64,000 nucleotides of DNA from Gaiellales bacterium (GCA_012719395.1 JAAYAL010000025.1:8558-72557), one strand, 5' to 3'. Counted from the first letter of the stretch, positions 5,884-32,833 are shown. A program made the numbers and translations. Notes: generated from the letters alone by a model not told the origin.

Positions 5884-5886
5884 CAG

Positions 5887-6438: not shown

Positions 6439-6496
6439 GCCCGGGGCCGAGTCCGGCCGGCGGGGGCAGACACCCGTCGCAGGTCCCGATAGGGGG

Positions 6497-6502
6497 TATA
6501 AT
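6497..6502 (+). promoter_or_regulatory. TATAAT -10-like hexamer upstream of the tmRNA precursor
   Basis: 'agggggtataatgac' about 45 nt upstream of the mature 5' end. No clear -35. Confidence 0.25.
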
Positions 6503-6547
6503 GACTCTGCCTACTCGGCTTGGTTCACGCCGCTTGGCGCATCTCAT

Positions 6548-6905: not shown

Positions 6906-6917
6906 TAAGTCTCATAC

Positions 6918-6947
6918 AAAAGCCCTGCTAATCCGGGGCTTTTCTTC
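6918..6947 (+). terminator. rho-independent terminator of ssrA
   Basis: aaaagccc-N10-gggctttt followed by tcttct. Confidence 0.6.
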
Positions 6948-7342
6948 TGGGAATGAGACAACAGGTTCGTAACACACTTGCGCTTTTGCCTTGTTGCAGC
7001 CAGAAATGCAGGTTTGGGGTGTGCACATTGGGGAGACGGGCGTGTGGAAGGGCGATTCTCATAGGATGAGACGGGAGGTGCCCCCGGGGAATGTTGAGGT
7101 TCCCCGGGGGCGAAGGTGCTATTGGTCAGCGACCACAGGGGTGCGCCTCACGGCAGTGGTCTTCTGTCTCGCAGAGAGCACCCAGGTGGGGGAACAAGAT
7201 TGACGAGAATCCGCTTGAAGAACACCCGGTTGGACTGCTTCTTGATGTGGTCGGGCGCTGTCTTGAGAAGTGGCCGGGTGAAATTGGACAGCCTCGTAGG
7301 TGATACTGCCCCCGGGCAGAACACCAAGGAGGAATACCAGCA

Positions 7343-7534
7343 ATGCCGAGAAGACCGAGGCGCAACCATGCACCGGCGTTCAAGGCCAAGGTGGCGCTGG
7401 AAGCCATCAAGGGCGAAGAGCCGTTCATTCAGATCGCTGAACGCTTCGACGTACATCCCAACCAGATCACCACGTGGAAGCGGCGACTTCTCGACGGCGC
7501 TGAGAGTCCTACCCGGCCGTTGGAACAGCCCTGA
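7343..7534 (+). mobile_element. IS3-family transposase OrfA N-terminal remnant (truncated)
   Basis: 'MPRRPRRNHAPAFKAKVALEAIKGEEPFIQIAERFDVHPNQITTWKRRLLDG' matches IS3/IS911 OrfA HTH. Ends prematurely, with no orfB. Confidence 0.6.
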
Positions 7535-7589
7535 CGGCAGTGGGGATTGGCAGGGGTCACACCCCGAAGAGGCCTCTGATGCGCTGATC

Positions 7590-7952
7590 GTGTATCGCAC
7601 ATTTACCGTGGAGCCGTCTGAGATTCTCAAGGGCAAACCCGAATTTGGCACCCCAGTGCAATTCTTCGTGGAGGGCGGCATCGTGGGCGAGGTCAGTGGC
7701 CCGGTGGACGAAGGCGACAAGGTCCTGGTGTTTGGTCAGTATGATCAGACCCTGTATGGGGGTACGTGGCCAAAGGACGCATACCACAGCACACATGGTG
7801 AGTGGTCCATATTCAAGGAAACCGAAACCGGACTGACTAATCTCTTCGTGCTAGGTGGTTTTGAAAGGCAGATGGCCGACAAGGGTTTTGATCGAGTCAC
7901 ACTGGACGATGTGAGGGCAGAGGTGGCTCAGCCCAGCATTACACAGGAGTAA
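7590..7952 (+). CDS. hypothetical protein (orphan; GTG start uncertain)
   Basis: Protein-like composition in the 3' half of ORF 7116..7952. GC about 55%. No recognizable domain. Confidence 0.3.
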   Translation: MYRTFTVEPSEILKGKPEFGTPVQFFVEGGIVGEVSGPVDEGDKVLVFGQYDQTLYGGTWPKDAYHSTHGEWSIFKETETGLTNLFVLGGFERQMADKGFDRVTLDDVRAEVAQPSITQE

Positions 7953-8303
7953 ATCCTCAGGTGATGGATGGGCCCGAGCACTGCGAGGCCCAGTTGTGGG
8001 TGGAATGGAGGCCAACCGGGATTTGAGAGGAGGATTACGAACTGCGGACAACAGAATGGATTCCGCTGAGTCCGAAACCGTGTGGGGCATCCTTTCTGTC
8101 GCTCGGGGAGCCCGGCGGCTGAAGATCTCCGCACTGTGACGCCGTACTGGGTTCACATCTTGCCGAGTGGTAGCGGCAACGTGCCTGCATATGACGATTG
8201 CAATGCTACGTTTGAATGTTGATCATTGCTAAACCGCACATTACAGCCTGTATCCTAGGCCTCATCATTCCAATTCGGATTTGCCTCAAATGCGTACAAA
8301 CGC

Positions 8304-8339
8304 AAAAGCCCATCAGACAACCAAATCTGATGGGCTTTT
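8304..8339. terminator. perfect 14-bp inverted repeat hairpin (bidirectional terminator candidate)
   Basis: aaaagcccatcaga-caaccaaa-tctgatgggctttt, immediately 3' of the minus-strand phosphoesterase gene. Confidence 0.6.
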
Positions 8340-8394
8340 GCTTTGCGACGGTGTCTAAGGGAACGAATAGAGAATGGTTGGTGGCATCCACCGT

Positions 8395-9705
8395 TCAATT
8401 GCTGACGCCTTGGCCGATATCGATCAGGGCACCATCCTCTGCAAAGCTGTAGAGCGTCGCCGTATCCTTTTCGTCCGCAGTAATGACGGTGAACGTGCGG
8501 GCAGCGTCCGGATAGTTGGTATTGTTATCTATCCAAGTTCCCGTGTTGATGTAGTAGGCTCCGTCGCCGATGTTCCGTAATGCCGGTACATGAGTGTGAC
8601 CAAACACGATGATGTCCACAGTTTCATCCGGATTGTCAATATACTGCGCCTTGGCTTGTGCAAAGAAGTAGTCCCAATTCAGCGTGCCGGATACCGCCTC
8701 GATAAAGGTGTTGTGAACCTTGACGTTATTGAGCTTCTGCCGCGCGTCCCATGTGCGCTGAATATGTTGGAACAACACGGGCGCCGATATTGTTCCGTCC
8801 GCCTGCTCGGCCGGGAAGAAATCGAGGTACGTGTAAGCGTCGTCAAAACCCGCGATATGCATATCGAAAATCTTCTCATCAAGACTTTCGTTGGGCGTCA
8901 CTCGCTCTGAAATGCTCTTGAGAACCGAGTAATAGATGTAAGCGCCGTACTGATCCGTATCCGTGTGATCCGGCACATTTGCAACCGCCGGCAGCTCCTT
9001 TGCCACTTCTGGATGGCCTTGCAGCACCCATGTGGCGGCATATCGGGCATAAAAATACCCGGCCGGAAGAATCGTATCGTCGTTGCCGCACAGTTTCGCG
9101 TTGGAAACCGTATCCGGCGCGGAAAACACATCGTAACGATGACCGTGCTCGATCACAATTTCGTTTCTGTCGCCCGTATAGTAGGCGCCAAGTCCTTTGG
9201 CGTCCGTTGCCTGCTCAATGTTCGGGATAGCTTGCTGCAGGATTTCCTTTTCCAGCGTCATATCGTGGTTGCCAATTACGTAGACAAGTTTGATGCCGCT
9301 GTCTGCAACGCTGTTCATCTCGTCGATAACGACCTGGTTATTCGCGATCACTTGCCTGTAAAACTGTTCCTCATCGGTATAGGACGTATAAGAGACGGGC
9401 AAAAACCATGCGTCCAAGAAATCACCCGCAATTACCAGTTCGCGCACATCCTTCGTATTCTGCAACCTCTTCAAGAACTCAACAAGCAGCGCACGGTTGG
9501 TCACTGTTTCACTATAGCTGTCAGCAATGCCCAAATGGAGGTCGCTTATAACGACGATCCTATTTCTTTCAGCGCCTGCTTCCCACAAGGGCGTCGCCGC
9601 CTCCGGCGTACTGGTTTGCGCCGCACATCCTGTGGCGAGCAGCGCGAGAGAGACTACTATGCTGCATGCCAGCATGAGAGACAGAAGCTTTTGTTTCATG
9701 TTCAC
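8395..9705 (-). CDS. calcineurin-like metallophosphoesterase lipoprotein
   Basis: Signal peptide plus lipobox 'LLATGC'. 'GDFLDAW', 'GNHD', 'GHRYD', 'GHTH' phosphoesterase motifs. GC about 48% versus about 68% for the flanks. Confidence 0.75.
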   Translation of the reverse strand: MNMKQKLLSLMLACSIVVSLALLATGCAAQTSTPEAATPLWEAGAERNRIVVISDLHLGIADSYSETVTNRALLVEFLKRLQNTKDVRELVIAGDFLDAWFLPVSYTSYTDEEQFYRQVIANNQVVIDEMNSVADSGIKLVYVIGNHDMTLEKEILQQAIPNIEQATDAKGLGAYYTGDRNEIVIEHGHRYDVFSAPDTVSNAKLCGNDDTILPAGYFYARYAATWVLQGHPEVAKELPAVANVPDHTDTDQYGAYIYYSVLKSISERVTPNESLDEKIFDMHIAGFDDAYTYLDFFPAEQADGTISAPVLFQHIQRTWDARQKLNNVKVHNTFIEAVSGTLNWDYFFAQAKAQYIDNPDETVDIIVFGHTHVPALRNIGDGAYYINTGTWIDNNTNYPDAARTFTVITADEKDTATLYSFAEDGALIDIGQGVSN

Positions 9706-10872
9706 GTGCTCCTAGTATGCCTTGGATGGTTTAGCTGCGCTTTTCGGCCACTCACATTCGCCCGCATTCCAAGCGCGGGGCTTGTGCAAATGAAGACAAG
9801 CGTACCGCATGCCGGGAGGTGTGTTCCGCGCTGGCGTGCGGGGCAAGGGCGTGTACGTTCCGGGCACGGCGTCCTTTCTAGCATATGGCGTCGATGGACA
9901 ATTGGTTGGCGCCCAAGGATACCCGGATGATTTCTATCCCGGCTTGCTGTTCGCGCAAGCGGGGAATAGCTTGCCGGTCGACACACGGAAGCGGGCAACT
10001 CCACCTCAGGGTGTTGGCCTCAAGCTTGGATCGCCGAAGTAGATCCGGCCGGCGGAAGCGCCAAATAGGTTGCTCTTGTATGAGCCGCACCGCCGGCCAC
10101 GACAGCGGCTCGCGATTGGATGGCGGAGTCTGATTCCGTGAGTCTGCTCTGCCGCGTTCCTTCCCGGCAACGTATCGCTGCCGCGCTCTGCTACGGCGCC
10201 GACTCCTCGGTTGCCGATGTGGCGAGGGCCATGGGCTCTCGGAGGGTTCCGTCAACAGTCATTTGCATCGAGCGCGCCCCGCTCTGCCCGGACTCCTGGA
10301 GGAGACGTGATGGGCACCAGACAAACCGACGAGCGGATAGGGAACGTCTACAGTCAGAACGAGGCTCCCGCCGATGTGGAGGCGTTCCCGTCACAGCTTG
10401 CGCTTCGTGGCTTTGTCGGGCTCGCCGTCCTGTTGGAGATGCAAGCCCGCCGAGCGCACGAGGTGCCGCTGCCCTGGCCCCATTGGCTCCGAGGGCTGGG
10501 GGGCAGCGTTCGAGGGGGGTGTTCCTCGCGAGTGCCTTCGCATGCGCTTTGTTGGGAAATGGGGCCCCGGCATTGGCGGACCTGCTCGGCAACATATCGA
10601 CTGAGTCGGGCCCAGATGGTTACCCTCGTCATTCGCGCGGGCACGCTCCACCACTTACCCGACGTGGGAGCCCCTCCAGATGGTTTCGTGTCAACCTTGG
10701 GCAACTTCGATCCGGCTCACGCGGCAGCCGAGTGGGCGCAAGGCACCCAAAGGCTGTTGTGGACGGAGGAGGCCATCAACTGCCGCCTGCCCCGCACCAT
10801 GTGTGCGACACTTCTGCCTCGTATGTCGCACCGTGGATAGAGGTACTGCATCGTGCAACCGGGAGGAAGGCT

Positions 10873-19581: not shown

Positions 19582-19690
19582 CGGTCGAGCACCGCGGCCC
19601 GGGCCTCGCAGCCCGGAACTACACGCCCGGGTCATAGTTGATGCCCGTGTGAGGCGTGCCGGGCCATGTGATCGAATGGGAGCGTGCTCG

Positions 19691-20779
19691 ATGAAGTCCG
19701 TGGATGAGCTGCTGGCGCAGATGGTTGCTGCCGATGCCTCCGATCTCCATATCAAGGCAGATAGCCCGCCGGTGATGAGGGTGGACGGTGGACTGTCCGT
19801 ACTGGAGGGGGAGCCCCTGACGTCGGAGCACACCAAGGACTACGCGGCCTCGCTCATGAGCGACAGGCAGATCCGGCGTTTCAGCGAGACCAACGAGATT
19901 GATTTCGCCTACAGCGCGCCGGCCATCGGCCGTTTCCGCGTCAACGTCTTCCGCCAGAGAGGGAGCATCTCCATCGCCGTGCGGCAGGTGGTGGGGAAGA
20001 TCCCCACTTTTGAGAAGCTCATGCTGCCGGACGCAGTGCGGAAGCTGGCTCTGGAGCCGCGGGGCATGGTGCTGGTCACCGGGACCACGGGGTCCGGCAA
20101 GACCACCACGCTGGCCACCATGATTGACCACATCAACGCCACGATGCGGCGGCACATCGTCACGGTGGAGGATCCTATCGAGATCCTGCATGCAGACAAG
20201 AACTCCATCATCAACCAGCGCGAGGTGGGGCTCGACACCGAATCCTACTCGTCGGCGCTGAAGTACGTGTTGCGGCAGGACCCGGACGTCATCCTCATCG
20301 GTGAGATGAGAGACCTGGAGACGGTGCGCACAGCCCTGACGGCGGCCCAGACCGGCCATCTGGTATTCAGCACCCTGCATACCATCGATGCCACGGAGAC
20401 CGTGAACCGGATCATCGACTTCTTTCCCCTCTATCAGCAGAAGCAAGTCCGCATCATGCTGGCCGGCTCGCTGCGCGGCATTATCTCGCAGCGGCTTTTG
20501 CCCCGGGCGGACGGGAACGGGCGGGCGCCGGCCGTGGAGGTGATGATCATGACCAACCGCATCCGGGACTCCATCCTTGATGGGGCGCACACCCACGAGA
20601 TCACCGCTGCCATTGGGGAAGGCGGCTTCTACGGCATGCAGACCTTCGATCAGAGCCTGCTCAGCCTGTACGAGCAGGGCGTGGTGACCCTGCAGGAGGC
20701 GGTGCAGGCGGCCACCAGCCCCCACGACTTCAAGCTCTTGGTGCAGTCGCATGGCCTCGAGGTGTCGCTGCGTGAGTAG
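19691..20779 (+). CDS. pilT: type IV pilus retraction ATPase PilT family
   Basis: Walker A 'GTTGSGKTTT', 'VILIGEMRD', PilT-specific 'AHTHEI'-type C-terminal region. Confidence 0.85.
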   Translation: MKSVDELLAQMVAADASDLHIKADSPPVMRVDGGLSVLEGEPLTSEHTKDYAASLMSDRQIRRFSETNEIDFAYSAPAIGRFRVNVFRQRGSISIAVRQVVGKIPTFEKLMLPDAVRKLALEPRGMVLVTGTTGSGKTTTLATMIDHINATMRRHIVTVEDPIEILHADKNSIINQREVGLDTESYSSALKYVLRQDPDVILIGEMRDLETVRTALTAAQTGHLVFSTLHTIDATETVNRIIDFFPLYQQKQVRIMLAGSLRGIISQRLLPRADGNGRAPAVEVMIMTNRIRDSILDGAHTHEITAAIGEGGFYGMQTFDQSLLSLYEQGVVTLQEAVQAATSPHDFKLLVQSHGLEVSLRE

Positions 20780-21377
20780 CATTGCTCCGCGGGCCGGTGG
20801 GCCGGCGCGCGAGGGCGTGGGAAGCGGGTGGAGTTGGAAGCGCCTGCGTCGCCTGCTGACCCCGGTCCGCCTACCCGCTGCTCCACCCATCCCGGGGGCG
20901 CTGGCTCTGCTCGTGCTCCGTTTTCCCCTGTTGGTTCCTGTTCGGCTGCGCTGGCGGACGGCAGCGTCGGGGCTGGGTTTGGCGGTGGCGACGCTGTGCG
21001 AGGGGCCGGTGGAGCAGGGGGCGGGCAGATCCGTAGGTGGGGCTTTGGAGGGCATTGGCGAAGCCCAGGGCCGCGCCTTGCAGGAAGCTCTGGGCTACGG
21101 TGCCACGCTACTGGAGTGTGCCCGGGCCGTGGCTCTTGCCAACCGCCTCTATCATATTCAGGCCCTGGCCGTGCCCGTCTCGCCGCAGGAGGCGCAGGTG
21201 GTCACGCTGGGCTGTCCCTGGTCGAGGCAGTCGTGGTGGGGCAAGCGTCCTTGCGGCGCGTTCTCCCGGTACGAGGCGGGGCTGGTGCGGGGATTGAACA
21301 ACCAAGTGTCGCTCACCTACTCGGCCAAGCGCACGCGGGGAGACGATCGGTGCGTGGGCGTCTACCGGTGGCGATAA
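20751..21377 (+). CDS. V4R (4-vinyl reductase-like) domain protein; start uncertain
   Basis: C-terminal 'VTLGCPWSRQSWWGKRPCGAFSRYEAGLVRGLNNQVSLTYSAKRTRGDDRCVGVYRW' fits the V4R Cys/Gly pattern. Overlaps the pilT 3' end. Confidence 0.4.
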   Translation: MASRCRCVSSIAPRAGGPAREGVGSGWSWKRLRRLLTPVRLPAAPPIPGALALLVLRFPLLVPVRLRWRTAASGLGLAVATLCEGPVEQGAGRSVGGALEGIGEAQGRALQEALGYGATLLECARAVALANRLYHIQALAVPVSPQEAQVVTLGCPWSRQSWWGKRPCGAFSRYEAGLVRGLNNQVSLTYSAKRTRGDDRCVGVYRWR

Positions 21378-21390
21378 GGGGCTGCGCCGC

Positions 21391-21753
21391 TCACGACTTG
21401 CTGCGCCGCTTGTCCCCTCCGATGATGATGTTGACCAGCCAAGTGATGACGGAGATGAGCAGGGCGGCCAGGACGGCCCACCAGAAGCCGTCGATCTGCA
21501 TGTGGTCGCCCAGTATCCAATCCAGGATCTGCAGGATCAAGCCGTTGAGCACCAAGGTGAACAGCCCAAGGGTGAGGATGTTGATGGGGAGGGTGACCAG
21601 CACCAGTATTGGACGCAGGAAGGTATTGAGGATGCCCAGCAGGAGCGCTGCCAGCACTGCGATCCAGATGCTGTCCAGTTGAAAGGCGGGCAGGATCTTG
21701 GTCACGGCCAGAATGGCGAGCGTGTTGACCGCCCATCTCACCAGCAATCTCAT
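21391..21753 (-). CDS. DUF360 / phage_holin_4_2 family membrane protein (YvlD-like)
   Basis: Three to four TM helices, 'LLGILNTFLRPILVLVTLPINILTLGLF' family signature. Confidence 0.6.
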   Translation of the reverse strand: MRLLVRWAVNTLAILAVTKILPAFQLDSIWIAVLAALLLGILNTFLRPILVLVTLPINILTLGLFTLVLNGLILQILDWILGDHMQIDGFWWAVLAALLISVITWLVNIIIGGDKRRSKS

Positions 21754-21807
21754 GCCGCCTCCCTGTGTGGTCAACTGTCGCCCGCGTGCCGACGGAAGGA
21801 ACGTCTC

Positions 21808-22782
21808 TTACGCCTCAGTATACGTCTGCAGAAGCTCTCTGGCGGCCTGTAGCAGGGCGGCCGTTTCTTCGGCCGGCTCCAGGATAACGCTTTGCCCCAG
21901 GTCGGCCAGCACCTCTCCCAACAGCCACTCGCGGTCGAAGTAGGGGAGGTGCACCAGCAACTGCCCGTCCGGCGCCCGGCTGAAGGGCATGCCCTGCTCT
22001 TCGAGGAGAGGGGCCCGCTCCGCTGGCTGTTGGAGGAGGGCCCAGTGAGGCGTGGGACCGAACGCTCTCGAGGCTTCCGTGGAGGGCGAACGGGTCATCT
22101 CCACCCGGGGTGTGAAGGTGGTGGGGCGTAGGGTGGCGACTTTGATTCGATCCACCCGGAAGGTACGGTGGCTTTCGCTCCGCAGGCAGTAAGCCTCCAG
22201 GTACCAGGCTCCCCCGATATTGCGCAGACCGTGGGGTTCCACCTCCCGCCAGGCCAGTTCATTGCGCGAAGGGGAGAAGTACTGGATGCCGGTGACCCTG
22301 CGTCCGGGGACGGCCTGTGCCAGCGTCTCCAGCACGTCGGGCGAGGCGGGCGTCAAGGACTCGGCGGCGGCGAGAGGGACGGCGGAGGGGCTGTCCAGGC
22401 AGGAGGCCAGCTTTGTCCGCAGCGCACCGGCCTCACCCGGTGGCAGCGGCAGTACATCTCCCACCAGGTCCAGTGCCAGGATGACCGAGCGGACCAGCGT
22501 GGGGGAGAGCCGGGCGGGATACGCCATGGCGTCGGCGCCCACGTCGCTTTCCACCACCAGATCGTCACAGTCGCGGTAGGCGTAGAGGAGGTAGGTGCCT
22601 CCTCCGAAGTTGACAAGGTTGAGCAGCGCCACGTCCTCTTCTATTTCGGAGACGGTCAGGCCCAGTGACGCCGTGATGTCTGCCAGCGGAATGCGGGGAG
22701 TGCTCTGGGCAAGCAGGAAGGCCAGAAGGCCCAGGGCCCTGACCACCCTCTCCGGCCCCACTCCCGGCGTTGGCCTGCTCAC
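21808..22782 (-). CDS. HTH-WYL-WCX transcriptional regulator (PafC-like)
   Basis: HTH 'ERVVRALGLLAFLL', WYL 'AWYLEAYCLRSESHRTFRVDRI'. GTG start overlaps the upstream gene's stop (GTGA). Confidence 0.7.
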   Translation of the reverse strand: MSRPTPGVGPERVVRALGLLAFLLAQSTPRIPLADITASLGLTVSEIEEDVALLNLVNFGGGTYLLYAYRDCDDLVVESDVGADAMAYPARLSPTLVRSVILALDLVGDVLPLPPGEAGALRTKLASCLDSPSAVPLAAAESLTPASPDVLETLAQAVPGRRVTGIQYFSPSRNELAWREVEPHGLRNIGGAWYLEAYCLRSESHRTFRVDRIKVATLRPTTFTPRVEMTRSPSTEASRAFGPTPHWALLQQPAERAPLLEEQGMPFSRAPDGQLLVHLPYFDREWLLGEVLADLGQSVILEPAEETAALLQAARELLQTYTEA

Positions 22783-23801
22783 GTCCTGGCTCCGTGAGAA
22801 TGGAGACGGATGATGGCCTGGAGTCCCTGACGGATGGCGGCGCGCAGCTCTTCCGGCTGCTGAAGCACCACCACGGTGTGGTGGCGCAGGACCCACCCGA
22901 CGAGGGGCTCAGCGGCGGCAAAAGGGAAGGTGTAGGTGTACCCGCCGGCGTCGGTGCTCTCCCGTTGCACGAACCGGCCATAGGTGCGGTCCACCCACCA
23001 GGCGAAGCGGCGGTCGATCCAGACGGTTGCCTCTCCCTCCACGGGTCCGAGCAACCAAGGGGGGCGGGCGGCGTAGTCGGCGGGGTCGTAGTCCGTGGGT
23101 GGCTCGAAGTCGGCGGGTTTCTTCGTCAGGAAACCCACCCGCCCGTTGATGCGATCCACCCGGAACATGCGTTGCGCCTGCCGCTGGTGATCCCACCCCG
23201 CGACGTACCAATGGCCGCTGATGAGGAAGAGGCCATAGGGGTTGACGCGGCGGGTGGCAGCCTGGCTCTCGGCCGCGCGGCGATAGGAGAACTCCACCGA
23301 TTTGCGGCGGGTGACGGCACTGTCCAGCTTGGCCAGCCCGGCTCGCACCTGCGGAGGGTAGTGATTGCCCACATGGATACCGGAGACACGGAGGTCCTGT
23401 TTGACGGGGGCGGGCCCGCCTTCGGCCAGTCGCAGCGCGTTCAGCGCCAGGCGCAGGGGCTGCTCGTATGGGAAGCCCCCCTGCAGCGCCAGAAGCGCGG
23501 CCGCCAGAGCCTGCACCTCGCCTGCGCCCAGGTGAAGCTGCGGGAGCGCGTAGTTCTCTTTGGGCAGGAAGTAGGCCTCCGTGTCCTCCCAGCGCGGATC
23601 AGACATCTTCACAATATGGAAGCCCAGCCGGCCCAGGCCTTGGCGATCATCGTAGAAGCGCTTCTTGAAGGCCTCGTCCGTCATGGCCCCGTAGCCCTCC
23701 ACGTTCTCCTGTACCTCCAACGAGGAAACGGGCCTGCCCGAGCCCAGCAGGAAGGAGAGGAGCGACAACTGGCGCAGGCTCTTCTCTTGGTCTTTGGACA
23801 T
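22779..23801 (-). CDS. HTH-WYL-WCX transcriptional regulator (PafB-like)
   Basis: HTH 'LRQLSLLSFLL', WYL 'GHWYVAGWDHQRQAQRMFRVDRI'. Confidence 0.7.
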   Translation of the reverse strand: MSKDQEKSLRQLSLLSFLLGSGRPVSSLEVQENVEGYGAMTDEAFKKRFYDDRQGLGRLGFHIVKMSDPRWEDTEAYFLPKENYALPQLHLGAGEVQALAAALLALQGGFPYEQPLRLALNALRLAEGGPAPVKQDLRVSGIHVGNHYPPQVRAGLAKLDSAVTRRKSVEFSYRRAAESQAATRRVNPYGLFLISGHWYVAGWDHQRQAQRMFRVDRINGRVGFLTKKPADFEPPTDYDPADYAARPPWLLGPVEGEATVWIDRRFAWWVDRTYGRFVQRESTDAGGYTYTFPFAAAEPLVGWVLRHHTVVVLQQPEELRAAIRQGLQAIIRLHSHGART

Positions 23802-23864
23802 GCTCCAAGGTTAGCGCACAAACGAGGCAAGGTTTCCGTCTGCGGCGGTGGATAGAATAGCGAC

Positions 23865-26798
23865 ATGGAATGGGTGAGCGGCGTGGGCGGAGCGGGGCGC
23901 GGTGCGCGTGGGTGTGAGCCGCGGGCGGCTGCCGGCGGGCGCGGGGAGATCCTGCCGGACGGGATCGCGCGCTGGTGGGGAGAGCACCGCGGTCGGGCAC
24001 CCTTCTTTCTGGTTCCTTCCCGGGAGGATGCCACGGAACTCACGCTGGCCCTGGCGTCGCGGGACGGCCCGCTGCTGGGTGCCGCCGTGGCGGGAACCTT
24101 CGATGATCTGGCTTCGCTGTTGCTGGGCGGTCGCGTGCGGCCCCTGGGTGAGGTGGCGCGGGAGGCAGTGGTGCGCTGGGCGGCGGCCCCCACCCTGGCT
24201 GCGCCGGACGGTGTGTTGGGCAGGCTGGGAAGCTTTCCCGCGGGGCTCGCCGGCCTGCTGGAGGAGATGGAGGCATCTGGTCTGGGAGGAGAGCAGATCG
24301 GCCGTGTCCTGGCCGCCTGGGAGGCCCTCGCCCCCGAGTCTGACGTGCGGCGTTTGGCGCAGGAGTTGCGCGTCATCTACCAGAGGTATGCGATGCTTTG
24401 TGCCGACCGCTCGTGGCACGGGACGGCGTCAACCCTGCGGGCGGCGGCCCTTCGTGCCCAGGGTGCGGTGGAGGCCGAGGAGCCCGAGCGGGAGGTAGCC
24501 TCAATCCACGCTGCTGCGCCGCTGATCCACGCTCCCGGCCCGGCCGTCTGGGCCCGTCCCATCCTGTGCGTAGGTTTCCTTACCTTCACACCAGTGCAGC
24601 GCCTGCTCTTGGATGCGCTGAGCCGGCGCACCACGGTCACACTGGAGCCGTCTTGGACGGGGTCTCCGAACGGGGGCCAGGCGCCCGTTCGCTTGCTGCA
24701 GTCCGCGGGCCGGCGCGGGGAGATGGAAACGGTCGCGGCCGAGGTGGTGGAACTGATGCGCGCCGGTATGGAAGCGGCGGACATCGCGCTGGTGGCGCGC
24801 AGCGCGGGGCCTTGGCGCAAGGTGGCCAAGGAGGTGTTCTCCGTCTATGGAATCCCGTTGAGAGTGGATGCCTCCTTCAGGTTCCGGGAGACGGGCCTGG
24901 GTAGTGCCTTGTTGTCGGCCGTGGGGGCCATGTTGAGGGGAGAGACCCGGGCGCTCATTGGGTGGTTCCGTGGCCGCTATTCCCAGGCGCATCCTCAGGC
25001 ACTGAGGGGTCGGGAGCTGGAGCGCTGGCGTGGGATTGTGTCCTGGCCGGCGGATCCTGCCGCGCGCGGGGTATTGGCGGAGCTGTTTCCCCAGGATATG
25101 GCTCTGCTGCAGGGCTGCGTGGAGACTGACGGCGGGGGCGCACCCCGTCTCCGCCCGGCAGGGGTGGTGGATCTGGCTCGGAGCATGGTCGCTGTGTCCG
25201 TGTGTCGGCTCCCCCTGATGCATCCCATGGTGGCGGAAGACGCAAGAGCGTTGCAGGCGTTGGAGTCGGGGCTGGCGGAGGTAGAAGAGACGGACGGTGG
25301 AGGGATGGACTCGGCCGGAGGAGGCGCCGCGTGGACCGGCGCCGCCGCCCTGCTGGACATCCTGGCCGACGCCGCCCTGTGGCCTGCACCCCATGTCGCC
25401 GGTGGGGTCACGCTGCAGAGCGCCGGCAGGCTTCGACTTCGCCCCTACCGCGCCGTCTTCGTGCTGGGCCTGGTGGATCAGGAGTTTCCCGCTGGGGACC
25501 AGAGCTCCGGTTTGCTGCCCACATCGCTTCGTAGGGAGTGCAACCGGTTGGGCGGCGAGGCGTTGTTTGAGGAGCCGGCGGAGGACCTGGACGCCAGGCT
25601 TTTCCAGTTGGCCGTCTCGCACGGCGCCGAGTGCGTCTACCTCTCTCAGCGCGTGAGCGATGACAACGGCAACGCCTTGTCTCCCTCCCCCTTCCTTCTC
25701 TCGGTTGACGCGGAGGGGGGAGGCCTGTCGCCCTGGAGGCAGCGGACTCTGGCGGATGTGGTGCACCCGGTACCTCTGGCGCCGAGCCATCACGAGTTCC
25801 TACGGTCCTGTGCGGCCGGGAACCTCCTTCCCGAAGGTGAGAAGAACATCTCCCGGTTGGTGGCGGCCGCTCGGAGTCTCCATTCTCCCGCCTGTCTGGG
25901 GGACGCACGCGTGATTGAGGTGCTCTCATCTCGTTCCACCTTCGCGGCCGGCGAGATTGAAGCCTATGCGCGCTGCCCTTTCGCATGGTTCCTGCAGAGC
26001 CAGGTGGGACTTCGTGCGGCGGAGGAAGACGCCGGGCCCCAGGATCTGGGGCTGCTGGTGCATGCAGTCATGGCCCGCCTCTACACGGAGCTGGGCAAGC
26101 TGGAGCTGCTGCCCTTGACCCAGGCTTCCAGCGCAGCCGCACTCGATTGCGCGGAGCGGGTCCTCAGCGAGGTCGCTGCCGGCAGGGCCGCCGTTGCTTC
26201 CCCGGCCTCCCGAGGCCTGCTGCTGGCCCAGGCCCGCTATCGCGTACGCGAGCACCTGGAGCGGGAGGCGGCGGCGGGAGGAGCCATGATGACGTGCGCA
26301 GTCGAGCTTTCGCTGCCCGCGCAGGGTGTGGAGTTGGGCGATGGCCTCGCGGTCCGCGGGAGGGTGGATCGGGTGGATGTCTCTCCGTCCGGTGACGGTT
26401 TTGCCGTGATGGACTACAAGACCGGCTCGTACGTGCCTCGCAAGGCATGGGCGGAGGAGGGCATGCTGCAGGTGGCGCTGTACCTGCTGGCGTTGAGCGT
26501 ATTGTGGCCGCAGAGGCGGCCGCTTGGTGGGGGTTACCTGTTCCTGGGGCGGGGTCAAGGCAAGGGTCTGTTTGTGGAAGCGTCGGCTCCGCTGGCGGGA
26601 GAAGGAGCACCGTGGGTCGCGGTACCGGAGGAAGAGCTGAGGCGGCAACTCGAGGATTGCCGTTTGGCGGCCTTGGGAGTCGCGGAGGGGATACGGTCCG
26701 GTCGGGTGGGCGCGGATCTCGCGAGTACCTGCCCACGCTACTGCGTGTTCGGCCCGGTATGCCGCAGCCGGAGGGGCTCCCCTTGGGGGTGGTCATGA
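23865..26798 (+). CDS. AddB/AdnA-like helicase-nuclease subunit (no Walker A; RecB-family nuclease with Fe-S Cys motif)
   Basis: C-terminal 'MDYKTG' nuclease motif, Cys at 'ARCPFAWF' plus 'CPRYCVFGPVC'. No GxxGxGKT. Start ATG 23865 or a nearby GTG. Confidence 0.7.
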   Translation: MEWVSGVGGAGRGARGCEPRAAAGGRGEILPDGIARWWGEHRGRAPFFLVPSREDATELTLALASRDGPLLGAAVAGTFDDLASLLLGGRVRPLGEVAREAVVRWAAAPTLAAPDGVLGRLGSFPAGLAGLLEEMEASGLGGEQIGRVLAAWEALAPESDVRRLAQELRVIYQRYAMLCADRSWHGTASTLRAAALRAQGAVEAEEPEREVASIHAAAPLIHAPGPAVWARPILCVGFLTFTPVQRLLLDALSRRTTVTLEPSWTGSPNGGQAPVRLLQSAGRRGEMETVAAEVVELMRAGMEAADIALVARSAGPWRKVAKEVFSVYGIPLRVDASFRFRETGLGSALLSAVGAMLRGETRALIGWFRGRYSQAHPQALRGRELERWRGIVSWPADPAARGVLAELFPQDMALLQGCVETDGGGAPRLRPAGVVDLARSMVAVSVCRLPLMHPMVAEDARALQALESGLAEVEETDGGGMDSAGGGAAWTGAAALLDILADAALWPAPHVAGGVTLQSAGRLRLRPYRAVFVLGLVDQEFPAGDQSSGLLPTSLRRECNRLGGEALFEEPAEDLDARLFQLAVSHGAECVYLSQRVSDDNGNALSPSPFLLSVDAEGGGLSPWRQRTLADVVHPVPLAPSHHEFLRSCAAGNLLPEGEKNISRLVAAARSLHSPACLGDARVIEVLSSRSTFAAGEIEAYARCPFAWFLQSQVGLRAAEEDAGPQDLGLLVHAVMARLYTELGKLELLPLTQASSAAALDCAERVLSEVAAGRAAVASPASRGLLLAQARYRVREHLEREAAAGGAMMTCAVELSLPAQGVELGDGLAVRGRVDRVDVSPSGDGFAVMDYKTGSYVPRKAWAEEGMLQVALYLLALSVLWPQRRPLGGGYLFLGRGQGKGLFVEASAPLAGEGAPWVAVPEEELRRQLEDCRLAALGVAEGIRSGRVGADLASTCPRYCVFGPVCRSRRGSPWGWS

Positions 26799-29700
26799 GC
26801 CTGACCCCCGACCAGCAGCGGGCTGTGTGTGCGGAAGAGAAGGTACTGTTTGTCTCCGCCGGAGCCGGGAGCGGCAAGACCAAGGTGCTGGTGGAGCGCT
26901 ACGTGCGGTGCGTGGCGGAACTGGGTGTTCCCACGGGGCAGGCGGCGGCAGTGACGTTCACCCGCAAGGCGGCGGGCGAGCTGCGTCACCGGATCCGTAG
27001 CAGATTCGTGGAGATGGGCAGGTCTGACCTCGCGCAGGGCATGGATCGGGCGCCGATCGGCACCATCCACAGCCTCTGCAGTCGCATCCTTCGCAGCGAG
27101 GGCCTCATCATGGGCCTTCACCCCGGCTTTCGCGTGCTGGAGGAAGACGAGGCGGAGATCCTGATACGCGATTCGTTGACGGCGGCCCGGGAAGAGGTTG
27201 CAGCACAGGCCGCCGCGGCAGAGCTCGAGGTGCTGGCCCGTCACCGCACCATGCTGGAAGAGCAGGTGCTGGCGGCCTTCCGGTCAATGCGCGCCGCCGG
27301 CCAACGAGTTCCGCGGCTTGGCGTGCCACCTTGCGGTGACGCCGGCCGGGCCAGGGCCGTCCTTGAGGCTGCCCTGGAGGACGTGTGTACTCTCTCGCCT
27401 GCTGAGCTCCCCAACGCCACGGCAGCCGGCAACTACGCCAAGGCCGGGGAGTGCCTGCAGTGGCTCGCCACCATCCCCTCCGTGCATCCCGCCACCATCT
27501 GCCGGGCGGGGGCCTACGTGCCCGCCATGAGGGGTGACAAGGTCAAGGCCCTCTTCGGTGAGCAGCGGGACGCGCTGGTCGCCTGGTGCCGTGTCATGGG
27601 CGAGGAGTACCTGGCGCGGGTGGCGGTCGTTGCATCTACGCTTCTGGACCGCTTCGTTGGCATCTACGCCGCGCTCAAGGCAGAAAGGGAGGCGCTGGAT
27701 TTCGCGGATCTGGAGATCGAGGCCATCTCGTTGCTCGAGAGCTCGGGACGACGTTCCCGGGAGCCCTTGTACCTGCTGGTAGACGAATTCCAGGACACAA
27801 ACCTGCTGCAGTGCCGGCTGTTCGATTTGCTGGCACCGGTGTCGTTCACATCGGTGGGCGATTACTTCCAGAGCATCTACTCCTTCCGTGGGGCGGACTG
27901 TACCGTCTTCCAGCGGCGGCGGGATCAGTTGCGGGCCGGGGAGGGCGAAGGCTTGGACTTCGGTCGCCACCGGGTGGGCGGCAGCGGCACGTCCGCCTGC
28001 ATCTCGCTGGCCACCAGTTTTCGCACCGCCGAGCCTGTCCTGACTGCGATCAACCGCCTATTTGGTCACGAAGCTTTCTTTGGCGTCTCGTACGTGCCGC
28101 TGGAGCCTTGCAGCACCCGCCACGTGGACCGTGAGCGGGGGCGACTGGATCCGGCCGTGGAGTTGCACGTGGTAGACGTGCCCCGCTCTTCGGACCTGGA
28201 CCGGGGTGAGGGAGGTGAGCTCGCAGAGGGCGCCGAGGGGGCGATGATGGGGCCCATAGGAGGATTCGCCGATGAGGGGGAGGTGGCGCAGGCGCCCTTC
28301 CCGGAGGCCTTGTACGTTGGCGCCCGCGTGAAATGCCTGGTGGAGGAGGAGGGTTGGCGCCCGGGGCAGATTGTGATTCTGCTCCGCAAGACGGTGCGGT
28401 CAGGAGAATACGCGCAGGCGCTCCAACGGCTGGGTATCGGCTCCTACGTGGTGGGCGGCAGGGGTTACTTCTCACAACTGGAAGTGACCGATGTCATGTC
28501 GTTCCTCACTCTTCTCCTCGATCCTCACGATGATCTGGCTCTGGCCACGGCGCTGCGTTCGCCCCTGGCCCGGGTGAGTGACGATGCCCTCTGGCTTCTG
28601 GGTCGTGTGCGCAGAGAGCAAGGCCTCATGTCGTTGTGGGAGGCCGTGCGCGCGCCAGACAGAGAGTTGCTTGCCACCCAGGACGAAAGGCAGCTTGAGT
28701 GCCTGTGCACAGCGGTGAGGGATCTGTGCGGCCGGGTGGGTGGCCCGGGGATGTCCGGCCTGATAGACGAGGCGGTCTCCTCGCTTGACTACGATTTGTC
28801 GCTTCTCTCCGCCCCGGAGGGGCGGCGTCGTTTCGCCAACGTGCGCAAATTGATGGAACTGGCGGACGTGTTCGAGGAAATGGAGGGGCCGGACCTGGCC
28901 GGTTTCTTGGCCCATGTGAGGCGGCGCGGGGGCTTGGGGGACAAAGAGGGTGAAGCCACGGTGTTGGCTGAGGATGAGGATGTCGTTCGGATCATGAGCG
29001 TCCACCAAGCCAAGGGGTTGGAGTTCCCGGTGGTGATCCATGCCGGGCTGGGGGACATGGTGCGAGAGGACAACCGGGGGCTTCTCGTGGGTGCCGAGGG
29101 TGAGGTGGCCTTGAGGATGACCCTTCCCGGCAAGTTCAACGCCCTGAAGAGCCACATCACGCTGGGACCCTACGAGCAACTGCTCCAACAAGAGAGAGAG
29201 CAAGTGCGCATGGAGGAGGCCCGCATATGCTACGTGGCGGCCACCAGGGCGCAGGAACGTCTCATCCTGGTGGGAGCGCGGGCGCCGCTTCTCCGCCAAG
29301 CGGAGAAGCGGCCGCTCACCTGGTTCATGAGCGCGGTGGGTTTGGGCGCGGAGGCCGACGTGCCTGTCGCGTCCCGTCCTTGGGACGACGTGGATCTGGT
29401 GTGCAACCCAAGCGTCCGTTCAGCTTGTTCCACTGCACCGGACGTCACCGGGCGGGAGAAGGCCGCGGGGGTGGTTCTGTCTCCGGTGGCACCGCCGGTG
29501 TTCCCTGCGCTGACGCGGGCGCCCTCGACCTCTGCGGTGAGTTTCTCCGCGCTGAAACTCTTCCACCTCTGTCCGCGGCGCTACTACGTGGAGCGCGTGC
29601 TCGGCTTCAGGGCCGAGACCGCCCTCAATCGGCCGGGCGACTCTCTCCCAGCGGTGGCGAGTGCGGCCAACGGCGCCCAAGAGGGGGAGTGGTATCCTCG

Positions 29701-30349
29701 CGGCCTCCGGGAGCCGGACGAGGAGGGGGAGCCCCAACGGCTGGAAATGGGCATCGTGGTCCACAAGATGCTGGAACTGGCGCCTCTGGGCGCTCACATA
29801 CCCGCTGAAGGCCTCCTGTGCGAACTCTACGGCGCCGCCACCAGCATGCTAGGCGTGTCGTTGCCCCAGCGGGCGGGTGAGGAGTGCCGGGCTCTGTGCG
29901 CCGCCTACTGGAGGTCGCCCCTGGCCCGGCTGGGCGGCGATACTCTCGGCCGAGAGGTCTCCTTTGCTTTTGCAGTCGGCGCCAGATTGGTGAAAGGCGT
30001 GATGGACCGTGTGGAAGTGTCGCGGGAGACCTGGCACATCATAGACTACAAGACCAACCTTCTCTGCGGTCGGTCGGCCCTGCAGGCATCTGCTGCCTAC
30101 CACCTACAGGTTGTCATCTACGGGTTGCTGGGGCTGCGGCGCGGTGCGGACCGAGTATACGTTCATCTGCTGTTTCTGGAGGCTCCGGAGGAGCCGGTCT
30201 CGGTGGCGTACGGGCCGGGGGATATGGCGCAGTTGGAGGAGCGACTGCGTGCCGAGGTGGTGGCTCTGGAGACCAGCCGCTTCGAACGCGCCGCGGCGGA
30301 ATGCCCTGCCTGTCCGCACAACTGGATGTGCGGGGTCACGCGGCATTGA
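26795..30349 (+). CDS. AddA/AdnB-like UvrD-family helicase with C-terminal RecB-family nuclease
   Basis: ATG overlaps the upstream stop (ATGA). Walker A 'AGAGSGKTKVL', UvrD motifs, 'IIDYKTN'. Cys pattern 'HLCP...CPACPHNWMC' (C-x2-C-x5-C). Confidence 0.8.
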   Translation: MSLTPDQQRAVCAEEKVLFVSAGAGSGKTKVLVERYVRCVAELGVPTGQAAAVTFTRKAAGELRHRIRSRFVEMGRSDLAQGMDRAPIGTIHSLCSRILRSEGLIMGLHPGFRVLEEDEAEILIRDSLTAAREEVAAQAAAAELEVLARHRTMLEEQVLAAFRSMRAAGQRVPRLGVPPCGDAGRARAVLEAALEDVCTLSPAELPNATAAGNYAKAGECLQWLATIPSVHPATICRAGAYVPAMRGDKVKALFGEQRDALVAWCRVMGEEYLARVAVVASTLLDRFVGIYAALKAEREALDFADLEIEAISLLESSGRRSREPLYLLVDEFQDTNLLQCRLFDLLAPVSFTSVGDYFQSIYSFRGADCTVFQRRRDQLRAGEGEGLDFGRHRVGGSGTSACISLATSFRTAEPVLTAINRLFGHEAFFGVSYVPLEPCSTRHVDRERGRLDPAVELHVVDVPRSSDLDRGEGGELAEGAEGAMMGPIGGFADEGEVAQAPFPEALYVGARVKCLVEEEGWRPGQIVILLRKTVRSGEYAQALQRLGIGSYVVGGRGYFSQLEVTDVMSFLTLLLDPHDDLALATALRSPLARVSDDALWLLGRVRREQGLMSLWEAVRAPDRELLATQDERQLECLCTAVRDLCGRVGGPGMSGLIDEAVSSLDYDLSLLSAPEGRRRFANVRKLMELADVFEEMEGPDLAGFLAHVRRRGGLGDKEGEATVLAEDEDVVRIMSVHQAKGLEFPVVIHAGLGDMVREDNRGLLVGAEGEVALRMTLPGKFNALKSHITLGPYEQLLQQEREQVRMEEARICYVAATRAQERLILVGARAPLLRQAEKRPLTWFMSAVGLGAEADVPVASRPWDDVDLVCNPSVRSACSTAPDVTGREKAAGVVLSPVAPPVFPALTRAPSTSAVSFSALKLFHLCPRRYYVERVLGFRAETALNRPGDSLPAVASAANGAQEGEWYPRGLREPDEEGEPQRLEMGIVVHKMLELAPLGAHIPAEGLLCELYGAATSMLGVSLPQRAGEECRALCAAYWRSPLARLGGDTLGREVSFAFAVGARLVKGVMDRVEVSRETWHIIDYKTNLLCGRSALQASAAYHLQVVIYGLLGLRRGADRVYVHLLFLEAPEEPVSVAYGPGDMAQLEERLRAEVVALETSRFERAAAECPACPHNWMCGVTRH

Positions 30350-30357: not shown

Positions 30358-30690
30358 CTACACGGCGTCGCTTGCTTGCTGCCGGCTCTGGAAGCAGCGA
30401 AAACACCCGTCGCCGGTCAACCCCACCATGGTGAAGATCCGCCGCAGATCGGAGTTGGCTGAGACGATCCCCAGCCATCCCTGGGGGCGCACGCGGGCAA
30501 GCAGCGAAAGCAGCACGGCGACTCCGCCGCTGTCCATATACGGGCAGTGCTCCAGATCCAGGAGAAGGCGAAGTCCCTCGCCCAGCGCTCGGTGGGTAAC
30601 CTCGTGCAGTGAGCGGCCGGACGAGTGGTCAACCTCGCCATGAACCTCCACCAGCGGTATCAGACCCAAGCGCGACTGCTGCAGTTTCAC
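30358..30690 (-). CDS. STAS-domain anti-sigma factor antagonist
   Basis: GTG 30690 after GGAGGAGG. 'LLLDLEHCPYMDSGGVAVLLSL' SpoIIAA-like. Confidence 0.65.
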   Translation of the reverse strand: MKLQQSRLGLIPLVEVHGEVDHSSGRSLHEVTHRALGEGLRLLLDLEHCPYMDSGGVAVLLSLLARVRPQGWLGIVSANSDLRRIFTMVGLTGDGCFRCFQSRQQASDAV

Positions 30691-30932
30691 CGTCTCCCAT
30701 CCTCCTCCGGGGTCAATCGTCTCCTCCGGCTCTGTACCCAAGCATCGGCCCAATCACTCATATCCTCATCGGCCCGGCCCGGCCCGGCCGGCGGCGCTCT
30801 GCTGCTCGTGGGAGCTCTGGAGGGAACGTGGGAGCACCTGCGCCGGTCCTAGCCGGCGGCGTGGCTGGAATGAGCCCGAACAAGGGCAAGGTGGCAGATG
30901 CCGATGGAAGTGCACGCCGAGGAGGAGAGAGG

Positions 30933-31052: not shown

Positions 31053-32132
31053 TCACTGTGTGACGAAGAACACCAGGAGCGAAGCCTCACCCTCAGGCCA
31101 GGAATCCGCGTCCACATCCATCTTCAGTGTGTCGTCCACCATCTCCGCCCGGTGATAGGTAGCGTATCCGGCCAGGATGCCGTTGAGGGCGTTCCCCAGG
31201 GTATCGGCGGGCTGGTTGCCCTCAGTGAGCCGGAATCCGAGTTGCTGTAGGTGCTGCATCAGCCCCGCCACGTGCGACGCAGAAACGACCACGGCAAAGG
31301 TGGGCCCTCCCATCCAGAAAGCGGAGGGAATGGGGTCCAGGTCGGTGGCGGTGCCAAAAGCGGAAGCGGTGGTCTCCGGGTCGGCTCCGTCCTGCTTCAG
31401 TTCCACCCAGGTAGGCTCCGGGACGCCCATGTACTTGGCCATGACGTCCAGTGATGCCGTGGTGGGCGGCTCGGTTGTCTCCGAGGTTGCGGCGGTGGTG
31501 GTGCCGGAGGTTGACGGCGTGAGGGTGGTGGAGGTGGGGGCCGACATGGTTTCCACGGAGTCTTCTGCCGTGGTGACCTGCTCATGTTCCACGTGGAGGT
31601 CGGCACCGGCTGCTTGGGTTGACAGGACGGTGGTGGTGGCAGCGAGCGTGTTGCGTGCCGTGGGGCCGGTGGGCCCGGTCTGCAGCAGCTCCGGCTGCAA
31701 GGAAATGGCCAGGGCGCCCACTACCACCAGTACCAGAGCGGCTGCGGCCACAGCTACGGAATGGGGTTGAAGGTAGGCGCGCAGGCGCCGGCGGAACGAG
31801 GGCAGGGCGGGCGCAGGGCGGGGCACGGTGGGCGCGGGGACAGGATCAGGGCGGCCGGCGGCTGTAGCAGCCGGGGGCGTGACGCCCAAGGCGGACAGCA
31901 CGGCCAGTTCCATGTGCCGGGGCGGTCGTGCCGGCTCAACGGCCTTGAGTGCCGCCGCCACCACGCGCTGATCCTCGAGCAGGGCTCGGCAGGCGGGACA
32001 CGTGGCCAGGTGTGCTTCCACCTGCGAGCGCGCGACCGGGGTAAGGCCACCCTCGATATAGTCGAGGGCCAGGGAGCCCCATTGCTCGATGTGGCCCAGT
32101 GGGGGGATGCTGGAAGCTCCGATCTCGCTCAT
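31053..32132 (-). CDS. ZAS-family anti-sigma factor (HxxxCxxC), single TM, Thr/Pro-rich extracytoplasmic domain
   Basis: 'HLATCPAC' zinc motif, TM 'VAVAAAALVLVVVGALAI'. ATGA overlap with the sigma gene. Confidence 0.7.
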   Translation of the reverse strand: MSEIGASSIPPLGHIEQWGSLALDYIEGGLTPVARSQVEAHLATCPACRALLEDQRVVAAALKAVEPARPPRHMELAVLSALGVTPPAATAAGRPDPVPAPTVPRPAPALPSFRRRLRAYLQPHSVAVAAAALVLVVVGALAISLQPELLQTGPTGPTARNTLAATTTVLSTQAAGADLHVEHEQVTTAEDSVETMSAPTSTTLTPSTSGTTTAATSETTEPPTTASLDVMAKYMGVPEPTWVELKQDGADPETTASAFGTATDLDPIPSAFWMGGPTFAVVVSASHVAGLMQHLQQLGFRLTEGNQPADTLGNALNGILAGYATYHRAEMVDDTLKMDVDADSWPEGEASLLVFFVTQ

Positions 32133-32833
32133 GACGGTGGCCGTTCTTCTCCCGTGGATCGACCGTTCGACGGCTGTGCTGCGCGGGGGGTTCCTGGTGT
32201 GTCGACCCCTGCGCCAGACGTGCTGCTTCTCCCGCCCGCGGGGCCATAGCCGGCGGCACGCAGCGCCTGCGCCAACTCGGCCCGGGCGCGGAATATGCGC
32301 GACTTGATGGTGCCTTCCTGCACGCCGAGGATCTCTGCCGCCTCGCTGTACTCGTAGCCCAACAGATCACAGAGGACAACGGCAAGGCGGAACCGCTCGT
32401 CCAGTAGGAGCAGCGCATCAACGAGCGGGGGGGAGAGACCATCTGCCGCTGGGTCCAGCCGGCTCTGACGCCCACCCACTAGCCGCCCGGCTGCTCCGGT
32501 TTCGCCGGGGGCACACGCGCGATCCAGGTCGTCGTTTTCCATGGGATCCAGGCGCCGCTTGCGCAGGTGGTCGCGCACTGCGTTCACCACGATTCGGTGC
32601 AGCCAGGTGCCGAAGCGCGCCTCTCCCCGGAATTGATCAAGGGCGGCGAAGGCCTTGATGAATGCCTCCTGCGTGACATCGGCCGCATCCCACGAGTCAC
32701 CCATCATACGCAGCGCCAGGTTGTAGGCTTTCTGTTCGTGGCGCCGGTAGAGCTCGGCCACCGCTTGTCCCTCACCCGCGCGGGCCCGCTCCACCAGCAA
32801 TTCGTCGCTGGGCGGCTCTGGTGTGTGTGACAT
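32129..32833 (-). CDS. ECF (sigma-70 family) RNA polymerase sigma factor
   Basis: Region 2 'AYNLALRMMGDSWDAADVTQEAFIKAF', region 4 'LGYEYSEAAEILGVQEGTIKSRIFRA'. Confidence 0.85.
   Translation of the reverse strand: MSHTPEPPSDELLVERARAGEGQAVAELYRRHEQKAYNLALRMMGDSWDAADVTQEAFIKAFAALDQFRGEARFGTWLHRIVVNAVRDHLRKRRLDPMENDDLDRACAPGETGAAGRLVGGRQSRLDPAADGLSPPLVDALLLLDERFRLAVVLCDLLGYEYSEAAEILGVQEGTIKSRIFRARAELAQALRAAGYGPAGGRSSTSGAGVDTPGTPRAAQPSNGRSTGEERPPS

Follow-up and report, generated by a model that had tools for sequence, protein, structure and literature searches.

The closest described relatives of the genes reported here are the helicase-nucleases AddAB of Bacillus subtilis (PDB 3U44, 4CEH-4CEJ) and AdnAB of mycobacteria (PDB 6PPJ, 6PPR, 6PPU, 9NP6). 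Enzymes of the AddAB type are heterodimers that use ATP to resect double-stranded DNA ends and respond to a Chi sequence. AddAB of B. subtilis is encoded by two adjacent genes. Its A subunit joins an active UvrD-like motor to a RecB nuclease, and its B subunit has an inactive body and a nuclease stapled by four cysteines (C801, C1121, C1124 and C1130), which were identified by crystallography as the ligands of a [4Fe-4S] cluster (PMC3321194). AdnAB is an actinobacterial end-resection heterodimer with UvrD-like ATPase domains in both subunits and an iron-sulphur (Fe-S) subdomain in the nuclease of AdnA only. In the searched literature, a Fe-S cluster is described for AddB and AdnA and for none of AddA, AdnB and RecB, and no account of a two-cluster AddAB was found. 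In a 64 kb stretch of DNA (the window) from a metagenome-assembled Gaiellales bacterium (class Thermoleophilia, Actinomycetota), a chromosomal pair of adjacent genes was found that is, judged from its sequence, an AddAB-type helicase-nuclease with one motor. Both nuclease domains of the pair are predicted to be of the iron-staple type, with four putative Fe-S ligands each.

Iron-staple nucleases such as AddB, AdnA, Dna2, Cas4 and ACE1 have one cysteine before the catalytic core and a C-x2-C-x5-C cluster after it. According to a survey of Cas4 (Hudaiberdiev et al. 2017, PMC5704561), all Cas4 family members have a Fe-S-binding module of four conserved cysteines. In the same survey, UvrD fused to a four-cysteine pfam12705 nuclease forms that family's largest branch; it was often found next to type III restriction-modification genes or Dcm/Vsr genes, and to WYL regulators, and a role in defence is proposed.

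The two genes of the window (Table 1) are co-oriented and adjacent, addB-like before addA-like, which is the arrangement of AddAB-type systems. The product of the first gene is identical to NCBI NLT35020.1 ('hypothetical protein GXX83_03880', 977 aa) and that of the second to NLT35021.1 ('UvrD-helicase domain-containing protein', 1184 aa). An earlier first-pass annotation of this DNA had given the same length of 977 aa for the first protein and had correctly noticed that the genes are coupled by an ATGA sequence, which lies at 26795-26798 and in which the start of the addA-like gene overlaps the TGA stop of the addB-like gene. Its length of 1300 aa for the second protein has to be corrected, as it derived from a mechanical open reading frame (ORF) whose ATG, in frame at 26447, lies within the first gene; the addA-like gene begins at the ATG at 26795. 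The two genes overlap or nearly abut in relatives too, in the same B-then-A order.

No G-x4-GK[ST] motif is present in the B subunit, the addB-like product. Thus, the earlier statement that this protein lacks any Walker A holds for the motif as such, but a degenerate P-loop remnant, GVGGAGRG, is kept. Walker A is likewise absent from all 18 closest B homologues, in which the remnants resemble GPANAGKA. The RecB-type nuclease motif pointed out in the first-pass annotation (FAVMDYKTG, with D850 and K852) was found, together with the cysteine upstream of it (AYARCPF, C704) and the cluster downstream (CPRYCVFGPVC, with C956, C960 and C966). PDDEXK_1, at residues 693-967, is the sole Pfam domain in this protein; its homologues are very divergent (26-33% identity), and many have Pfam ADDB_N. 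The only solved structure related to it by sequence is AddB (3u44_B), and the model addB_Gpos (TIGR02773) gives a weak match (62.2 bits vs a cutoff of 903.7). By fold, the AlphaFold2 (AF2) model of the whole subunit (predicted local distance difference test, pLDDT, 73) is matched best by AddB (E 6e-30) and then by AdnA and RecC. A motorless helicase-like body followed by a four-cysteine RecB-family nuclease is the composition of an AddAB-type B subunit; B. subtilis AddB is about 190 aa longer than the window protein and has a GxxGxGKT P-loop in place of the degenerate one.

In the A subunit, all motifs listed earlier were recovered, namely AGAGSGKT, IIDYKTN (D1084, K1086), HLCP (C926) and CPACPHNWMC (C1170, C1173, C1179), and DEFQD was found in addition. 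With Walker A, DEFQD and motif VI, the protein has a complete superfamily 1A (SF1A) motor besides its nuclease, as in the AddAB type, and its Pfam domains are UvrD-helicase, UvrD_C and PDDEXK_1. The best NCBIfam match is addA_Gpos (TIGR02785; 265.5 bits vs a cutoff of 707.65), and the recB model reaches 134 bits vs a cutoff of 696. Among solved structures, AddA (3u44_A) is best with E 2.8e-54, compared with 1.7e-22 for mycobacterial AdnB. The catalytic nuclease residues are invariant in the families of both subunits, including D1071, D1084 and K1086 among the A homologues. B. subtilis AddA ends about 25 residues past the QxxxY motif and has no cysteine cluster, whereas the window protein continues into a four-cysteine staple with C926 before the core and C1170-x2-C1173-x5-C1179 after it, which is the iron-staple spacing.

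The first-pass annotation had called the pair AddAB/AdnAB-like. Of this, the AddAB part stood and the AdnAB part did not, since Walker A is missing from the first subunit, whose fold is nearest AddB, and the second subunit is nearest AddA. B. subtilis AddAB is the best match for both subunits in sequence and in fold. AdnAB has a Walker A ATPase in both subunits and its cluster in AdnA only, whereas the window pair has one motor and a cysteine set in each subunit. RecBCD, with three subunits including RecC and the SF1B motor RecD, does not fit either, and no recD-like or recC-like gene adjoins the pair.

The cysteines of the A subunit were evaluated in 114 full-length homologues with 33-59% identity. 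C926, C1170, C1173 and C1179 are invariant in all 114, and the remaining 23 of the 27 cysteines vary. Similarly, among the 16 cysteines of the B subunit only C704, C956, C960 and C966 are invariant (20/20 homologues). The invariance of exactly four cysteines per subunit rules out that these residues are there by chance. A profile of the A nuclease searched against 1.8 billion representative proteins yielded 392 clusters at E<=1e-30, and the C-terminal C-x2-C-x5/6-C cluster was kept in 129 of the 138 new top matches, most of the other nine being fragments or truncated-looking. In the distant half of this family, a C-x2-C-x6-C spacing (typically CxxCPGRxxLCSWP; e.g. P0187, P0194, P0204) was observed in place of C-x2-C-x5-C.

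The spacing C-x2-C-x5-C of AddB and Cas4, to which the pair had been compared earlier, applies to the A subunit, but the first subunit has C-x3-C-x5-C. Cysteines 2 and 3 of the B family are separated by 3-5 residues in the 20 homologues and by 2 in the pairs from Deinococcus, Desulfarculia and Roseiflexaceae described below. When the A-nuclease profile was aligned to the B-family profile with hhalign, all four cysteines were paired one to one (probability 98.6%, E 6e-16, 242 columns). Cysteines 1, 3 and 4 of the B family align exactly with C801, C1124 and C1130 of B. subtilis AddB, and cysteine 2 falls one residue off C1121 because the spacing differs by one residue. The A-subunit cysteines are therefore tied to the AddB ligands indirectly via the B family, by an A-to-B and then a B-to-AddB alignment. 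PDB searches with either nuclease domain as a single sequence gave nothing useful, so that profiles were required.

This match to the iron-staple positions of AddB is the equivalence on which the first-pass annotation had made its proposal of a distinct end-resection variant depend. Its assertion that AddA and AdnB are not known for such cysteines agrees with the searched literature, which assigns the cluster to AddB and AdnA only. As the cysteines match and the cluster is unreported in AddA, AdnB and RecB, the pair can be regarded as such a variant. Comparison of sequence profiles places the catalytic core of the A nuclease nearest to nucleases without a cluster (RecB 8e-6, AdnB 4e-5, AddA 6e-5) and farther from the iron-staple enzymes AdnA (4e-3) and Cas4 (0.08). 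The domain thus appears to be an AddA/RecB-type nuclease that has an N-terminal cysteine helix and a C-terminal cysteine module. Its fold is shared with the iron-staple nucleases, unlike its core sequence: the modelled domain overlays over a greater length on AdnA, the top structural match, Dna2, the Cas4-family protein ACE1 and AddB than on AddA or RecB.

Related pairs were collected in a scan of a genome collection with one narrow peptide pattern, which gave 27 loci and is unsuited to frequencies. The two-gene unit with both cysteine sets was also found in Clostridium carboxidivorans P7, in metagenome-assembled genomes of Desulfarculia and Roseiflexaceae, and on a plasmid of Deinococcus psychrotolerans (NZ_CP034187.1; L032 3395-10656). 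In Halobacterium salinarum, plasmid pHcu_235 (L033 1931-8615) encodes an overlapping, generically annotated B-then-A pair with the four cysteines in B only and none around the A nuclease. As this A subunit has no such cysteines, the double staple is a trait of a subfamily and not of all non-canonical pairs. By the conservation of its putative ligands, the double staple is a widespread subfamily character, being the rule across the Thermoleophilia clade and occurring in several other phyla, and is not peculiar to the window genome. Natural fusions of B and A exist, as in P0202 (2345 aa), which has two DYKT nuclease motifs, one mid-protein Walker A and two three-cysteine clusters. Two further very long relatives, P0239 (2221 aa) and P0251 (1918 aa), resemble AddB-AddA fusions. 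A 'mini-AddB' in L002, a nuclease-only gene of 287 aa (7141-8004), was rejected as a probable frameshift or assembly error, a 953-aa ORF (5085-7946) in the other frame covering the rest. On the Deinococcus plasmid, the pair is followed by small hypothetical, WYL, DUF499 and DUF3780 genes and a toxin-antitoxin pair. This context looks more mobile or defence-like than that of the window.

Divergent from the addB-like gene, two genes for paralogous proteins with helix-turn-helix (HTH), WYL and WCX domains are encoded, as is characteristic of a PafBC regulon. The first-pass annotation had taken them for dedicated WYL regulators. They turned out to be PafB and PafC homologues; PafBC is the general activator of the DNA-damage response in actinobacteria. 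Besides the PafB half of PafBC (6sj9_A), the best solved relatives of the pafB-like product include chain 7p5x_AY, taken here as PafB, from the M. smegmatis PafBC-RNA polymerase entry. Read from its first start, the pafC-like ORF runs into pafB; since the alignment with PafC sets in at ORF residue 50, translation probably starts near 22770. PafB and PafC are fused into one protein in relatives, as in PafBC of Arthrobacter.

The published consensus of PafBC promoters is tGTCgg(N10)tA(N3)T (PMC8635444). The pattern nGTCnG-N10-TAnnnT has one single match on both strands of the window, on the addB strand and directly upstream of the addB-like gene, and no -35 element accompanies it. The motif occupies the same intergenic position in 16/20 loci, compared with 1.1% of background 300-nt windows. 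Because the -10 box ends 6 nt before the ATG, a leaderless addB mRNA is implied. Another pattern, a RecA-NDp motif (TGTCRGTG-N8-TANNNT), showed no enrichment (9 matches vs 12 expected), and the published consensus was used in its place. A further conserved block, TAAGACTAGCGCAC on the plus strand (GGTTAGCGCAC in the window, 23802-23835), adjoins the start of pafB and was seen at the same place in eight related loci (L001, L003, L009, L010, L012, L020, L021, L029). On the pafB strand, the block reads as a -10 box (TAnnnT) with about 6 nt left to the start codon, and pafB therefore also looks leaderless. Firmicute AddAB genes are under the SOS system, and in the window pair PafBC would take its place. 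In mycobacteria, adnA is strictly PafBC-dependent (PMC8682763). The identity of PafB and PafC, the promoter motif, this precedent of adnA and the lack of a specific defence match make a PafBC-controlled, damage-inducible resection enzyme the best reading of the locus.

We consider it likely that the pair encodes a heterodimeric AddAB-type enzyme which resects double-strand breaks for RecA loading, has both nucleases stapled and is damage-inducible via PafBC. A mechanism can be drawn by homology with B. subtilis AddAB. Transcription would probably be turned on by DNA damage, when PafB and PafC, bound to single-stranded DNA, guide RNA polymerase to the hybrid promoter with -26 and -10 elements directly upstream of the addB-like gene; a leaderless, translationally coupled addB-addA message would result. 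In the predicted heterodimer, the single UvrD-like motor of the A subunit would pull the complex along the 3'-ended strand in the 3'-to-5' direction, feeding this strand into the subunit's own C-terminal nuclease. The dead helicase-like body of the B subunit may scan or hold the strand, and the 5'-ended strand would be cut by the B-subunit nuclease. The complex would probably contain two Fe-S clusters (about 8 Fe), not one. The second cluster would most likely pin the N- and C-terminal ends of the A nuclease and thereby shape the exit channel of the 3'-ended strand.

Some observations weigh against this proposal. The four cysteines could hold zinc instead or, as one Cas4 does, a [2Fe-2S] cluster, and AF2 is only moderately confident near the C-terminal cysteine cluster of the A subunit (pLDDT ~61-75). 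Both proteins remain far below the NCBI AddA and AddB equivalog cutoffs, so that the pair does not represent strict-sense orthologues of the studied AddAB, and the pairs from Clostridium, Desulfarculia and Roseiflexaceae likewise fall short of these cutoffs. Moreover, some members may serve other roles, because the Deinococcus plasmid copy adjoins WYL, DUF499 and toxin-antitoxin genes. The same plasmid pair could be quoted in favour of the defence-type module that the first-pass annotation had suggested as a possibility, in which WYL sensors would control the degradation of invading DNA by a UvrD-Cas4-like fusion and a partner nuclease. The A subunit does resemble the UvrD-Cas4-like fusions of the Cas4 survey (PMC5704561), for which defence was proposed, as a UvrD-type SF1 helicase and a four-cysteine PDDEXK_1 nuclease are combined in one protein and WYL regulators are sometimes near. 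However, those fusions, with a monophyletic helicase, are described as stand-alone or as neighbours of type III restriction-modification or Dcm/Vsr genes, and no mention is made of an AddB-like partner, whereas the AddB-like partner of the window family is constant, translationally coupled and sometimes fused. With PADLOC, the helicase core gave generic UvrD (GajB-type) matches only and the B subunit none, and no restriction, methylase or other defence genes were found near the pair. Core housekeeping genes surround it instead, the gene order is kept across a class, and the WYL genes are PafB and PafC and come with a PafBC damage-response promoter. A defence function is accordingly thought quite improbable for the window pair.

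A different objection leaves the AddAB-type pair as it is and assigns zinc or another structural ligand to the A-subunit cysteines, so that a single cluster would remain. Four-cysteine sites with such spacing can bind zinc, and the confidence of the AF2 model is lowest at the C-terminal cysteine loop. We nevertheless regard this as unlikely, since the four cysteines are homologous column for column to those of the B family, which are aligned, apart from the offset of cysteine 2, to the [4Fe-4S] ligands of AddB. Furthermore, the A domain overlays best and longest on the Fe-S-bearing AdnA, Dna2 and ACE1, and the four-cysteine module is a Fe-S module in every Cas4 family member (PMC5704561). That the pair is instead an AdnAB-type enzyme with two UvrD-like motor subunits, the usual actinobacterial form, would suit its host, which is an actinobacterium, the rank of AdnA as top structural match of the A nuclease domain and the PafBC control of AdnAB in mycobacteria. 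It is hardly credible in view of a first subunit that has only a degenerate P-loop, whose one solved sequence relative is AddB and in whose fold comparison AddB precedes AdnA, and of the far better E value of the second subunit with AddA than with AdnB. Beyond the reading as a stapled AddAB-type resection enzyme, one may speculate that the double staple is ancestral to AddA/RecB-type nucleases and that the second cluster was lost in the studied lineages; clusters on both strand exits may also go beyond stabilising the fold, rendering resection responsive to oxygen, iron or the redox state, or linking the nucleases through DNA. This extension is doubtful and is offered tentatively.

The neighbourhood in the window contains genes for a cell-wall hydrolase, a T2SSE-type ATPase, a holin-like membrane protein, an extracytoplasmic function (ECF) sigma/anti-sigma pair, trigger factor, ClpX, Lon, valyl-tRNA synthetase (ValRS) and FolC. 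The order T2SSE, holin-like, pafC and pafB, followed by the divergent addB and addA, is kept in about 19 Thermoleophilia loci, and the sigma/anti-sigma pair is also kept downstream in relatives. A PafBC regulon is also marked by linkage of pafBC to the Pup-proteasome locus; proteasome or Pup genes were not seen among the neighbours examined. Farther away, a stretch of low G+C content (0.53 vs ~0.66) with ORFs that have no family match was observed after the tmRNA gene, at 7000-10800. An integrase or island was sought in this stretch, where no integrase and only a metallophosphoesterase gene was found; an island inserted at ssrA is possible.

Table 1. Positions of the helicase-nuclease gene pair, its predicted functional sites and promoter, and other features, counted from the first nucleotide of the window.
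Feature	Position	Strand	Remarks
addB-like gene	23865..26798	+	977 aa; degenerate P-loop, predicted inactive helicase-like body, C-terminal RecB-family nuclease
addA-like gene	26795..30349	+	1184 aa; UvrD-type SF1A motor, C-terminal RecB-family nuclease
B-subunit nuclease domain, predicted iron-staple type	25974..26762	+	4 Cys invariant in 20/20 homologues; AddB alignment
B-subunit Cys codons	C704 25974-25976; C956 26730-26732; C960 26742-26744; C966 26760-26762	+	
B-subunit catalytic D850 and K852	26412-26420	+	
A-subunit Walker A	26858-26881	+	AGAGSGKT, residues 22-29
A-subunit nuclease domain with second predicted four-Cys staple	29507..30346	+	
A-subunit Cys codons	C926 29570-29572; C1170 30302-30304; C1173 30311-30313; C1179 30329-30331	+	
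A-subunit catalytic D1084 and K1086	30044-30052	+	
PafBC-type promoter CGTCTGCGGCGGTGGATAGAAT	23837..23858	+	-26 GTC 23838-23840; -10 TAGAAT 23853-23858
pafB-like gene, HTH-WYL-WCX, divergent from addB-like gene	22779..23801	-	Pfam WYL, WCX; 6sj9_A residues 7-318 (PafB half of PafBC), E 1.2e-20
pafC-like gene, HTH-WYL-WCX	21808..22896	-	Pfam WYL, HTH_PafC, WCX; best solved relative M. smegmatis PafC 7p5x_AX, E 2.4e-21
'Mycobacterial 4TMS phage holin' family membrane protein	21391-21774	-	just upstream of pafC; position kept in most related loci
ORF without family match	20751-21377	+	
T2SSE-type secretion ATPase	19649-20779	+	position kept in most related loci
Anti-sigma-factor antagonist (STAS)	30358-30753	-	directly downstream of and convergent with addA-like gene
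zf-HC2 anti-sigma factor	31053-32132	-	
ECF-type sigma factor	32129-32833	-	
tmRNA gene	6548-6905	+	Rfam RF00023, 173 bits
Metallophosphoesterase gene	8395-9705	-	inside low-G+C stretch

Proteins of this kind are currently annotated as 'UvrD-helicase domain-containing protein', 'hypothetical' or 'PD-(D/E)XK nuclease family protein'. The pafBC-addBA arrangement with its recognisable promoter would extend the PafBC damage response to Thermoleophilia, a deep actinobacterial class, and may serve as a simple anchor for defining the PafBC regulon there. The A subunit also bears on the relationship among the nuclease domains of AddA, RecB, AddB and Cas4. In the three models of end resection, RecBCD, AddAB and AdnAB, a Fe-S cluster is found only in the subunit that cuts the 5'-ended strand, at the fork. 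With a large and phylogenetically broad subfamily in which the nuclease predicted to cut the 3'-ended strand is stapled as well, the role of the cluster could not be that of a fork wedge alone. Such pairs would thus lend themselves, as a natural system, to the question of the cluster's contribution to a RecB-type nuclease, with Clostridium carboxidivorans P7 and Deinococcus psychrotolerans as cultured carriers.

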